A stretch of 63,773 nt of DNA, filler included, from Collodictyon triciliatum (lineage: Eukaryota): assembly GCA_043381765.1 (NCBI GenBank). It is 16 parts of 16 records of this genome, joined end to end, with 100 filler letters (N's around TTAATTAATTAA, not from the genome) between each part and the next. Parts side by side here need not be neighbours in the genome. Positions count along the whole stretch, not along the records: positions 17,235 to 21,447 come from JBHJMP010006381.1; 15 more parts are not named here. The stretch is one strand, 5' to 3'. A program made the position numbers and the translations under genes. Under the pieces are notes generated by a model. The model had not been told where the DNA came from and did no database searches. It worked only from the letters and a program-made list of their open reading frames with translations. Of this stretch, positions 17,237 to 20,358 are shown in pieces (the stretch's first letter is position 1; each line of letters opens with the position of its first letter).

Positions 17237-18241
17237 CAAATCAGTACATGTTATCTTACATATGATGTTGTTCGTATGGCTCCAGAATATCATCAACAGC
17301 TGCAGTCAAGTATTCAACGAGGAATTCCCCTGCAAATTCCGTACAAGACTTGGAGGACTTCTATGTACAGCTTACCATCTGGTCAACAAACGCTACATGT
17401 TTTTAATATCAACGATACAGTTAAATCACTGAATGCTGTGTATATTGCGTTTTTTAAGCAGCGAGAGCAAGGCACATTTTTGGTTCCTGGCAAAGATAGA
17501 AAGCACAAGCTCCCAACACTTGTTGACGCCCAGCTTCAACTTGGCTCATTCTACTACCCCTTGCAGCCAATGGACTGTGAAGGAAATGCACCCCAAGCAT
17601 TCTTGGAGTTGCAAAAGGCGCTTGGTCTCACTCACGTGCGAAGTGAATACACCGGGCCGTTTAAGTTTGATGGCCGAAACTTTGTTGGCAACTTTTTAAA
17701 TAGTAGACAAAATTTGGAGACTGGAATTTCATGCACTGTACCTGCACAAGGAACAAATACTCAAAGTGCGGTAACTGTAAATGCTCCAGTTGTTTTACTA
17801 TCTTATCATGGCGCGTCGGTAAATGGGGCTGTTATAACAGGAACTAAACCTTCTAAAGCTAATCCTTCAGATGTAAATAATGAAATTACTTGTAGTATTG
17901 TATCAAATGCAAATCATTCGGCATTTACTGTTACTAATGCTGCCGGTGGTCAAACCGCGACTTTCAATAGTGATATAATTAATAGATATTATGGACAAAC
18001 TTGCCAGGGCCCAGCCAGTGAATTTATGAATGGATTCAATCTCCGCAAGGTGCTTGATGCAGTCGAAGGGGAAATAGTCGGTACAGATGTACAGTCGTCC
18101 GGTAGCGACTTGATGTCATTAAGATTAAACTTCAATGCTGCTATTGGTGACACTGACGGGCCGTACAATATCATTGTTGCATCGCTATATGACGCTGTCC
18201 TCGAAATTCAATCCAACCAGCAGACTTTCCGCGTAGAATAA
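17237..18241 (+). CDS. Double-jelly-roll major capsid protein of a Polinton-like virus, C-terminal part (open to the contig edge)
   Basis: Intronless. Motifs typical of the second jelly roll of PLV MCPs: CYLTYDVVRM..YHQQL..GIPLQIPYKTW, KSLNAVYIAF, QLQLGSFYYPLQPM, AFLELQKALG, FMNGFNL..GTDV..MSLRLNF, IVASLYDAVLEI. Confidence 0.8.
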   Translation, partial: QISTCYLTYDVVRMAPEYHQQLQSSIQRGIPLQIPYKTWRTSMYSLPSGQQTLHVFNINDTVKSLNAVYIAFFKQREQGTFLVPGKDRKHKLPTLVDAQLQLGSFYYPLQPMDCEGNAPQAFLELQKALGLTHVRSEYTGPFKFDGRNFVGNFLNSRQNLETGISCTVPAQGTNTQSAVTVNAPVVLLSYHGASVNGAVITGTKPSKANPSDVNNEITCSIVSNANHSAFTVTNAAGGQTATFNSDIINRYYGQTCQGPASEFMNGFNLRKVLDAVEGEIVGTDVQSSGSDLMSLRLNFNAAIGDTDGPYNIIVASLYDAVLEIQSNQQTFRVE

Positions 18242-18257
18242 AATATTTATATAAGTA

Positions 18258-18413
18258 ATGGAACCGATTACAATAATCTCATTACTTATGACTTGTGTGT
18301 TAGTTTTAGAGAGACTGTGGAAATATACAGTCGACCATCTCAAACGCAGCTCGTGTTGTGGTGGGACAGTTGAATTTAAAAGTGAAAAGGATTTGTTACA
18401 TAGCGCGTCTTGA
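18258..18413 (+). CDS. 51-aa small membrane protein with SSCCG motif (virus-type), absent from the ORF track
   Basis: MEPITIISLLMTCVLVLERLWKYTVDHLKRSSCCGGTVEFKSEKDLLHSAS*; starts 16 nt after the MCP stop; N-terminal hydrophobic helix. Confidence 0.65.
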   Translation: MEPITIISLLMTCVLVLERLWKYTVDHLKRSSCCGGTVEFKSEKDLLHSAS

Positions 18414-18425
18414 AATTTTAAAATG

Positions 18426-18717
18426 AGCCGCCCGCCCCGAACACCAAATTCGCCGCATTTTTTTTCCAGGCTCAAGGTCAATAGTCGGGTATTGAGGGCT
18501 TTGACCCCCCCTCAACTCTCTTTATAAATTATCTTTTTTTTATTTTAAAATTTTTTTTCCTTTATTCGATTCAAAGTTTTATTTTAAAATTTTAAAATTT
18601 TAAAAAAATAAAATAAAGAATATAGAGAACTGGAGCCCGGCAAAAAAGTCCAATTAGCCAGCTATAGACCTTAGCCAGGGAATTATTTTGCGAATTGGGT
18701 GTTGGGGGCGGGCGGTT
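18426..18717. repeat. ~290-bp imperfect inverted repeat (arms ~70 bp) around an AT-rich core, between convergent viral ORFs
   Basis: Left arm CCGCCCGCCCCGAACACCAAATTCGC..CCAGGCTCAAGGTCAATAG; reverse complement of right arm CCGCCCGCCCCCAACACCCAATTCGC..CCTGGCTAAGGTCTATAG. Confidence 0.85.
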
Positions 18718-19382
18718 TATTTTCGGCCGTAGATCTCAAAGCGATGCGTGTAGATGTAGCAGTCCTTGCAGTAAGGGAAATGCGCAGGGTCTTGGTCTGG
18801 TGGGTAGAAGTCACACCACGTACATTTAGGAATCATTTTTCTCAGATAACAAGTTTCACAGTGGCCGTCAATAAAGGGTGTTAACAATGTGCATGTTTTG
18901 CAGTAAGGCTCACCTCGACACATTAAACACAATTTATATTTGGGGTCGCATACAGAACTGCAATTATCGCAGAGGCCTTTTCTGCATTTATTGCACCTGT
19001 TGACTTCTCGATTCCTATGCGAGTCATGACATATGTCACAGTTGCGGCCGCTGGCACATCCGTATGATTCTGCAAACTGTTTCTTGCAGCAGCTGCCTAT
19101 GACCAGAACTTTGGTGCCATCGGTAATCCAATGATTGTATTTAATTTCATGATAGCACACACATTCATTACTTCTGGGCAATTCGCCAAGTGATGCTATC
19201 AACTCGGGATTATTTTTACCAACAAGATCGAAATGCGTTGTTGTTGTCACGGCATCACCGTCGCCGTCAGTGTCTCGCTTTTCTCCGCCAATGTACCACC
19301 AACCAATCAAGTCTGCTGGTACCATGTCATATTTATTTTTAAGACCGAGGATAAATCTTTCGTGCAGCGTGTACTTGTTCAT
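18717..19382 (-). CDS. 221-aa Cys-rich (multiple CxxC) hypothetical protein of giant-virus/PLV type
   Basis: Intronless; CVCYHEI...VLVIGSCCKKQF motif followed by about eight CxxC pairs. Confidence 0.7.
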   Translation of the reverse strand: MNKYTLHERFILGLKNKYDMVPADLIGWWYIGGEKRDTDGDGDAVTTTTHFDLVGKNNPELIASLGELPRSNECVCYHEIKYNHWITDGTKVLVIGSCCKKQFAESYGCASGRNCDICHDSHRNREVNRCNKCRKGLCDNCSSVCDPKYKLCLMCRGEPYCKTCTLLTPFIDGHCETCYLRKMIPKCTWCDFYPPDQDPAHFPYCKDCYIYTHRFEIYGRK

Positions 19383-19512
19383 TTTGAAATCGGCCCGGCA
19401 AATTATAAAACCATTTCAATTTTTGTTTTTGGCGAGGATGGCGCGCGTTCATACCATATATGGTCGTGAATTGGGTATATAAACAGGGCAAACAATTGAG
19501 GATGAAATAATC

Positions 19513-19554
19513 TGATATTTATTTATTCTAGATATATAGAATAAATAAATATCA
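19513..19554. terminator. Perfect 18-bp AT-rich hairpin (6-nt loop); candidate viral transcript 3'-end signal
   Basis: TGATATTTATTTATTCTA-gatata-TAGAATAAATAAATATCA. The palindrome is certain; the function is inferred. Confidence 0.5.
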
Positions 19555-20358
19555 TCTTCTTTCCCCATCACATATGAAAACATCGTATCCGAAGATGACC
19601 TGGCCATCCACGTGCGAGAGATAGCGCTTTATGCCGATGTAAACATTCCATTTTATCTGTGTGCGCTTCGCCAACACCATGAAAACACAAATCGTGGTGG
19701 AAGCAGCTGTTGCCCCCTGGTTTCTGACAAAACTTTTTCTGATAGCTTGCGTGCCTGCATCTCGCTGTGCATCTGAATGTAATGGACTACGTGTCCAACT
19801 GGGAGGAGCGTTCGCGACAGCTGCAAGTGATTGAGCAGCGCTTTGGTGCCGGCACAGACGAGTCCTGAGAAAGCTCCGGCTGACGCGGCTCACAAAGAAT
19901 GGTTATCAATAAATAAAAAATAAAAAAAGATAAAAAAAATCAGTGTGGCGGGAATACTCTGATTGAAGCGGGTGCGGTCGACTCGCTCGCGTATTCATCT
20001 GCTCTTTCACTTTCGAAAGACGCCATCACGTCGCGTCTGACAGGCTGTCATCCAATCATATAATTGAGAGCGAGTTGTTTGCGCATCGGATTTATCACGG
20101 CCACCACATCGCCACACCGACGTCCACAACAGAAAATCAGAAGAGAGGAGTTGGGTGACTATAAGGAAAGAATGAGAAATGAAATCAATGCACACATGAA
20201 CAGCAGTATCGCACGGGGCACAAAGAAATGACAGAGCCAGCAAGCTCGGAGTGGGCAGAAGAAAAGAAAAAATGGAAGGGGCAAGTGGCAGACGGGATTC
20301 TATCACGGCCATCAGAATCCGAAGCGGACAGCCAACAAACATGACGGCGGCATTCCTA

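Follow-up and report, generated by a model that had tools for sequence, protein, structure and literature searches.

A Polinton-like virus fragment, likely joined to host DNA, on a short contig of the Collodictyon triciliatum assembly

Endogenous Polinton-like viruses (PLVs) fill protist genomes, and some of them defend against giant viruses. PLVs are described as 14–40-kb elements that expand in protist genomes (PMC12220804), and a lone major capsid protein (MCP) gene on a short protist contig is said to be usually a poorly assembled piece of a full, high-copy endogenous PLV (PMC10120064). Virophages use giant-virus signals and can integrate and remain silent (PMC10945749). More specifically, Sputnik and mavirus carry the late promoter of their giant virus, and the genes of Sputnik have hairpin signals of the Mimivirus type at their ends (PMC6723459); the late promoter of mavirus is 'TCTA' within AT-rich flanks (PMC8547959). 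Polintons/Mavericks and adintoviruses are integrating elements of eukaryotic genomes. Here, we describe a viral block at the left end of a contig of the eukaryote Collodictyon triciliatum (NCBI GenBank assembly GCA_043381765.1). We consider it rather probable that positions 17235 to ~19560 of the window (i.e., the whole stretch of 63,773 nt that was analyzed) hold the late-gene end of a PLV genome lying in, or assembled next to, eukaryotic nuclear DNA.

The contig under study (JBHJMP010006381.1; window positions 17235–21447, 4213 bp) carries three viral open reading frames (ORFs), located at 17276–18241 (plus strand), 18258–18413 (plus strand), and 18717–19382 (minus strand). An earlier reading made without database searches (the sequence-only reading) had placed the ORFs at these positions, regarded them as undisrupted, and put them on the same contig as a three-exon gene. 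All of this was borne out: the ORFs visible in the viral block are intact, and the stretch 17235–21447 is free of N. The ORFs are also more than chance frames, since relatives exist for each of them, i.e., 34 homologues for the first (capsid), 4 for the third (Cys-rich), and counterparts of the second (51 amino acids [aa]) in 10 of 11 related loci.

The capsid ORF comprises 321 aa at 17276–18241 (stop codon at 18239–18241), and its frame is open back to 17237, which yields a 334-aa C-terminal piece of a putative double-jelly-roll (DJR) MCP on the plus strand (17237–18241). The ORF is truncated by the contig start, and ~213–218 N-terminal residues (~40% of the protein) are absent; the piece aligns to residues ~214–540 of a 540-aa relative and to ~214–552 of the family (510–552 aa). 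A search of 5.8 billion proteins gave 1074 candidates, among which 34 were homologues at E ≤ 0.01, with 30 of the 34 covering 100% of the query. The closest of them (P0002) is 552 aa long and 77% identical, and most are 510–552 aa in length; P0009, P0021, and P0035 are relatives that come from NCBI. Exhaustive HMMER analysis over 1.84 billion representatives revealed just 23 proteins at E ≤ 1e-3, 8 of them at ≤ 1e-10. The ratio of nonsynonymous to synonymous substitution rates (dN/dS) for the capsid piece is ~0.12–0.22 against four of the related loci (L001, L002, L005, and L010).

The family has little footing in curated resources. Pfam gave no family for the window ORF, a sole hint for 30 aligned family members (DJR-like_dom, 1 of 30, E = 0.012), and nothing beyond one sub-threshold chance match for 19 distant relatives. 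A sequence-profile search of the PDB with the MCP returned 0 matches at E ≤ 10. In IMG/VR, no relative was found via the MCP piece, the MCP alignment, the MCP of locus L010, the distant relative P0040, or the Cys-rich alignment; since these scans depend on short exact peptide patterns, this null result is no proof of absence.

The fold was assessed on the full-length relative P0002. Its AlphaFold2 model, obtained with a 30-sequence alignment, shows two beta-sandwich halves (mean predicted local distance difference test [pLDDT] 75, predicted template modeling score [pTM] 0.77). Of the 500 best Foldseek matches in BFVD, 138 reached E ≤ 1e-3, as did 241 matches in the PDB, and VIA-align gave Z ≥ 8 for 238 of 945 chains. 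The named top matches in BFVD were all DJR capsid proteins of adintoviruses, adomaviruses, nucleocytoplasmic large DNA viruses (NCLDVs)/giant viruses, and virophages, and the matches named in the top rows of the PDB, BFVD, and VIA comparisons were all DJR capsid or scaffold proteins. The VIA-align Z scores were 24.6 for the faustovirus MCP, 24.2 for Paramecium bursaria chlorella virus 1 (PBCV-1), 23.0 for p72 of African swine fever virus (ASFV), 18.1 for Sputnik (3j26), 17.7 for PRD1 P3, 16.6 for mavirus (6g45), and ~13 for adenovirus hexons. According to the strand map of the model, the window piece represents the last strand of jelly roll 1, the linker helix, and the entire jelly roll 2. The sequence-only reading had proposed a DJR MCP and had named failure to model as a jelly roll as the outcome that would speak against it; this modeling was carried out on the 77%-identical full-length relative, which came out as a double jelly roll with DJR MCPs as its top Foldseek and VIA matches. 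As judged from this model, the window ORF is the C-terminal ~60% of a DJR MCP, which would assemble trimeric pseudo-hexameric capsomers of a small icosahedral virion.

The type of virus is indicated by the 11 related loci (L001–L011), which come from one metagenome scan. Where the sequence reaches, they have a common layout, with a large ORF on the opposite strand (1015–1393 aa where complete), a 114–119-aa ORF, the MCP, and a small ORF. Locus L010, an 11.8-kb part of a contig of 16,409 bp, has an MCP that is 47% identical to P0002. One of the 9 ORFs of this locus, the only one with any Pfam match, encodes a packaging ATPase (Pox_A32, E = 1.5e-9, 38.1 bits versus a cutoff of 22.8); this gene was found in L010 and not on the contig under study. 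Besides the 16,409 bp of L010, MCP relatives are listed on contigs of up to 17,215, 17,173, and 16,905 bp, the completeness of these contigs not being established. Given the DJR MCP, together with the A32 ATPase and the contigs of ~16–17 kb in its relatives, the assignment of the viral block to a PLV, as put forward in the sequence-only reading, is well supported. The window would thus display ~2.3 kb of an element expected at ~16–17 kb, starting mid-MCP, which is too small a part to bear out the possibly intact virus of the sequence-only reading. The ORFs of 265–267 aa in L009 and L010 (267 aa in L010) are penton candidates by size and position only, and Pfam revealed nothing for these ORFs or for the large ORFs of the related loci. 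At the end of L009, a weak GIY-YIG match was also observed.

In comparison with described PLVs (e.g., PgVV-14T and the endogenous elements surveyed in PMC10120064), the block is alike in its DJR MCP, its compact intronless genes, and its relatives on contigs of ~16–17 kb, one of them with an A32-type ATPase, and it also resembles the endogenous forms in being a lone MCP-bearing fragment on a short eukaryotic contig. It differs in that neither Pfam nor PDB sequences match its MCP family, which was also not encountered in the IMG/VR scans, in that no penton, replication, or integration gene can be named here, and in that a membrane ORF of 51 aa with high conservation comes after the MCP. The lineage may be undescribed, as the sequence-only reading suggested, or may already be within published PLV MCP sets. 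Polintons/Mavericks and adintoviruses share the DJR capsid fold with it, and an adintovirus capsid was the third-best BFVD match (E = 1.8e-12); however, their hallmark pPolB, rve integrase, and adenain-like protease were not seen in the available parts of the relatives (~16–17 kb).

The structural comparison also brings in a giant virus (Nucleocytoviricota) insertion, in place of a small PLV, as a source of the block. The highest Z scores are those to the faustovirus, PBCV-1, and ASFV capsids, with 333–355 residues aligned at a root mean square deviation of 3.3–3.4, and the ESM-Atlas clusters nearest to the Cys-rich ORF are all viral and mostly labeled Nucleocytoviricota (0.94, 0.91, and 0.90), which we treat as a lead only. 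On the other hand, sequence identity to these three MCPs is 8–9% (7–10% to all NCLDV MCPs), 0 of the 30 family members match the NCLDV capsid families of Pfam, and the relatives, whose gene sets are compact and PLV-like, are found on contigs that do not exceed ~17 kb. Taken together, these data make a giant-virus origin extremely improbable, and we retain the assignment to a PLV.

The second gene of the block (18258–18413, plus strand) begins 16 nt after the MCP stop. The predicted 51-aa protein has a hydrophobic N-terminal helix, then a basic stretch, and then an invariant SSCC within an SSCCGG motif. In 10 of the 11 related loci, the MCP is immediately followed by a homologue with 58–98% aa identity; the sequence of L004 breaks off within the MCP, and that of L008 extends only 12 codons into the small ORF. 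In the 5 of 6 pairs for which dS could be computed, dN/dS was ~0.07–0.16, and dS was saturated against L005. In addition, the ORF is conserved more than the MCP, synonymous change is abundant, and several conserved residues have been kept through multi-step codon changes. On these sequence comparisons, the ORF is a real, conserved gene for a predicted small membrane protein under purifying selection, and its product may be located in the internal lipid membrane of the virion. Pfam gave no match for either this ORF or the Cys-rich ORF. We found no published description of a 51-aa membrane ORF after the MCP, although no literature search was aimed at it.

The gap between the small ORF and the convergent Cys-rich gene is filled by an imperfect palindrome of 304 nt with an AT-rich core (18420–18723). 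Its outer arms (18420–18453 and 18690–18723) are 34 nt long and 88% complementary, the match of the palindrome to its own reverse complement is 66% over 318 alignment columns, and small AT-rich arrays were detected by Tandem Repeats Finder at 18521–18614. The block is therefore not wholly repeat-free, and its description as microsatellite-free in the sequence-only reading did not hold. We also considered this palindrome as a head-to-tail junction of the terminal inverted repeats (TIRs) of two genome ends, a candidate that was dropped. Beyond the small ORF, listed ORFs or at least 110 nt continue in 7 of the 11 loci (L001, L003, L005, L006, L007, L009, and L011), and thus the MCP and the small ORF are not generally at a genome end.

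The third gene (18717–19382, minus strand) is intact and encodes a Cys-rich accessory protein of 221 aa. Since it contains many CxxC pairs, the protein is predicted to bind zinc. Its 4 homologues display 56–90% identity. For one of them (P0038), the longest contig listed has 17,215 bp, a figure equal to that listed for the closest MCP (P0002), which suggests, and does not prove, that P0002 and P0038 share one element. The AlphaFold2 model of the Cys-rich protein was unusable (pLDDT 45, pTM 0.24). In the related loci, genes other than the Cys-rich ORF occupy the slot past the small ORF, and since gene content there differs among loci, we regard the slot as a variable accessory position. Among its occupants are a related plus-strand ORF of ~100–140 aa in L001 (1857–2165), L003 (2034–2462), L007 (1724–2113), and L011 (789–1214), and a minus-strand ORF with a weak DUF5754 match in L005 and L011 (sub-threshold in L011).

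Sequences flanking these genes recall giant-virus signals. The octamer AAAATTGA occurs on the minus strand at 19416–19423, ~40 nt upstream of the ATG of the Cys-rich ORF, where a single occurrence could be due to chance. Further copies precede the accessory ORFs of L001 (by 74 nt) and L011 (by 99 nt), so that 3 of the 5 occurrences in all loci and the contig precede accessory ORFs; this is a lead only. AAAATTGA is described as the core of the Mimivirus early promoter and as being used by the PLV PgVV (10.1101/2022.07.28.501842), with which the accessory gene of the window would thus agree. Among 46 regions upstream of ORFs in L002, L004–L006, and L008–L011, 20 have an AT-flanked TCT(N) at a distance of exactly 13 nt from the ATG, versus a mean of 0.86 per position. 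We regard it as a fixed-position promoter- or initiator-like motif that may be akin to the 'TCTA' of mavirus (PMC8547959).

At the other end of the genes, hairpins with z < -2 were observed at 12 of 37 gene 3′ ends in the related loci versus 2 of 42 intragenic control windows. AT-rich palindromes at or just past stop codons are found in L005 (5590–5630), L007 (1666–1703), L009 (2208–2242, 5767–5799, and 6044–6075), L010 (1798–1841 and 5997–6028), and L011 (694–727). On the contig under study, an AT-rich hairpin (19513–19554) with a perfect stem of 18 bp and a loop of 6 nt overlaps the stop codon (19552–19554) of a minus-strand ORF (19893..19552). None of 200 shuffles folded as well (z = -4.38), and the hairpin reached z = -6.9 in the 3′-end comparison.

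Given the fixed TCTN before starts and the AT-rich hairpins after stops in the relatives, we propose that the MCP family is probably transcribed by the machinery of a giant virus, as virophages are; the proposal draws on the relatives and not on the window. By the same analogy, the family may depend on a giant virus. The likeness to virophages (Sputnik and mavirus) extends to the MCP fold (Z 16.6–18.1), which is common to all DJR MCPs, to the AT-flanked TCTN before starts, and to the AT-rich 3′ hairpins, comparable to the Mimivirus-type signal of Sputnik (PMC6723459). Virophages, such as the endogenous mavirus-like elements of Cafeteria, can also integrate and stay silent (PMC10945749). In contrast to this likeness, MCP identity to virophages is 9–10%, the structural scores are below those to NCLDV MCPs, and in the available parts of the relatives Pfam detected neither a cysteine protease nor an rve integrase or pPolB.

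To the right of the viral genes, the contig takes on a different character, and it is likely, from the sequence, that the viral block is joined to host DNA. The central feature is a three-exon gene model on the minus strand (20359–21233; exons 21233–21070, 20868–20734, and 20648–20359) with a Pro/Ser-rich product. Its introns are bounded by GTGAG..AG and GTAAG..AG, and exactly one of the joined frames is open, running through 195 codons up to the terminal stop. The GC content is 0.58–0.64 in the exons versus 0.37–0.38 in the introns, and the GC dips coincide with the introns. The same contrast is displayed by a spliced SDR-like gene on a neighboring contig (exons 0.44–0.55, introns 0.24–0.30). 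As a mechanical model, then, the three-exon gene of the sequence-only reading stood up. In addition, the A- and T-rich tracts of the right part, including a T16 run, resemble those of neighboring contigs. The first such host-like low-complexity tract is an A-rich microsatellite (AATAAAAAAA x3) at 19908–19939, and the contig ends in a T-rich tract or poly(T) of 122 nt (21326–21447). A tblastx comparison of 19560–21447 with the 11 related loci revealed no match except in low-complexity tracts. No tRNA genes or Rfam families were found in 18700–21447.

The last surely viral base is 19382, where the Cys-rich ORF starts, and the first host-like feature appears at 19908. We infer a virus-host junction between 19383 and ~19908. 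This zone also contains a minus-strand frame open for 116 codons (19555–19902), for which there was no Pfam match, no match in the related loci, and a best Atlas score of 0.76, below lead level. By eye, a plus-strand frame of 41 codons (19746–19868) was noted after a possible acceptor; it ends in TGA, and AATAAA (19908–19915) follows ~40 nt on. The two could represent the last exon and the poly(A) signal of a plus-strand gene.

Several observations weigh against a PLV end joined to host DNA. The three-exon model has no Pfam domain, and its exon 3 had no homologue among proteins of 52–168 aa. GC content climbs gradually from ~0.43 to 0.60 over 19560–21447, without a sharp boundary, and the GC-rich zone holds long open frames on both strands, for which reason the three-exon model could be fortuitous. 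The hairpin at 19513–19554 sits exactly at the stop of the rightward minus-strand ORF; since 3′ hairpins at viral genes are a habit of the family, viral sequence may extend further right. The TCT motif is absent at both start sites visible in the window, and no penton, replication, or integration genes of the MCP family were identified by Pfam in the available parts of the relatives. Finally, no TIR, target site duplication (TSD), integrase, or att site is visible on the contig, which holds at most one element end.

Part of this evidence would fit a contig that is viral over its entire 4.2 kb, with lineage-specific PLV genes in 19560–21447 and a three-exon pattern that arose by chance. The hairpin at the 3′ end of ORF 19893..19552, placed like those at viral genes in the related loci, speaks for such a contig, as do the accessory region past the small ORF, which varies between relatives, the missing homologues of the proposed host gene, and the long ORFs on both strands of the GC-rich zone. 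Nevertheless, the right part matches none of the 11 related loci, and the exon GC of 0.58–0.64 departs from that of the viral genes (0.36–0.47). The 122-nt T tract and the T16 run likewise argue against viral DNA, and the agreement of GC dips with GT-AG introns in a joined frame open over 195 codons would have to be fortuitous. Moreover, PLV genes are intronless according to PMC10120064. We thus regard an all-viral contig as quite improbable, and host DNA to the right of the PLV block as the better account.

The junction itself is known from the assembled contig sequence alone, which counts against integration. The PLV block could be real and its join an assembly chimera, or the PLV could be free, episomal, or from another organism. 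The assembly is highly fragmented, with contigs of ~4.2 kb, and the junction zone holds two features able to seed mis-joins, i.e., the strong palindrome at 19513–19554 and the A-rich tract at 19908–19939. Furthermore, GC content varies from 0.12 to 0.59 per kb across the contigs of the window, such that the assembly may be heterogeneous, and the lack of a visible TIR or TSD would also be in line with these alternatives. Conversely, only a minority of the contigs in an ordinary assembly are chimeric. The two halves of the contig share short low-complexity matches and otherwise no repeat, and no long inverted pair convincingly connects them. It is common for short protist contigs to carry endogenous PLVs (PMC10120064). 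On balance, a chimeric join or a virus that never integrated seems unlikely to us, and a PLV end joined to host DNA is the reading that we prefer.

If the PLV end is joined to host DNA, the arrangement could have arisen as follows. The contig would begin inside the MCP through a short-read assembly break, which is usual for multi-copy endogenous PLVs, and the remainder of the ~16–17-kb element (ATPase, penton, replication, and integration genes) would lie on other contigs. The right 1.5–1.9 kb would be host DNA with a spliced gene, and the integrated copy would be a silent provirus awaiting giant-virus infection. We had also considered the start of the contig in unique sequence as a sign of multi-copy PLVs; this was dropped, as about half of the contig ends are likewise non-repetitive. 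The most far-reaching version of the proposal is tentative and, taken as a whole, rather doubtful. In this version, the block would be an integrated copy from a freshwater PLV lineage that is uncatalogued, has the behavior of a virophage, and is read by mimivirid machinery via TCTN at -13, AAAATTGA before accessory genes, and 3′ hairpins. The provirus would be silent until a giant virus infects and would then reactivate as an inducible defense against giant viruses, and the 51-aa SSCCGG protein would be a lineage-defining component of the virion membrane.

The setting of the contig also deserves mention. The window is split by 15 identical linkers (N44-TTAATTAATTAA-N44), starting at 4211, 8520, 12828, 17135, 21448, 25754, 30060, 34366, 38671, 42976, 47279, 51582, 55885, 60188, and 61722, into separate pieces of ~4203–4213 bp plus shorter last pieces. 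The pieces appear to be small unplaced contigs sorted by length. The linker at 17135–17234 directly precedes the contig under study, which begins at 17235. Because linkers separate contigs, the viral block has no physical linkage to DNA left of 17235 or right of 21447, and any finding that crosses a linker combines unlinked DNA.

The other contigs of the window contain eukaryotic genes for a Roco kinase, DnaJ, and Hikeshi, along with many microsatellites, and tblastx against the 11 related loci revealed no PLV genes on them. According to Pfam, two long open frames on the minus strand at 47433–51009 encode Roc, COR-A, and protein kinase domains (Roco-type kinase), and Hikeshi is encoded at 33645–34199. 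A DnaJ/DnaJ_C ORF of 421 uninterrupted codons lies at 6300–7562 (minus strand) on a contig of ~55% GC, well above most pieces; this GC-rich contig may point to an assembly that is mixed or of heterogeneous composition. An LRR ORF was observed at 56655–57569, and a retroelement remnant at 39003–40213, in which a zf-RVT match (39611–40213; E = 4.3e-7) lies beside a 205-codon frame on the opposite strand. In total, 24 sequencing runs share words with the contig under study, the best two at 0.24 and 0.22 and 18 more at 0.06–0.16. Most of these 18 are labeled as freshwater metagenomes, none of the listed runs is recorded as RNA, and these shares carry no information on habitat, host, or expression.

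One further endogenous PLV fragment adds little on its own, as finds of this kind are ordinary in protist genomes. The points of interest are an uncurated MCP family, a very conserved 51-aa companion gene, and a promoter-like motif at a fixed position. In the resources searched, the MCP family has no Pfam model, solved structure, or named representative. Through the find, this family, which is common in metagenomes, is linked to the assembly of a eukaryotic host, and it could thus gain a host. In addition, the fixed-position promoter-like motif and the 3′ hairpins predict that the family depends on a giant virus, a prediction that can be tested.

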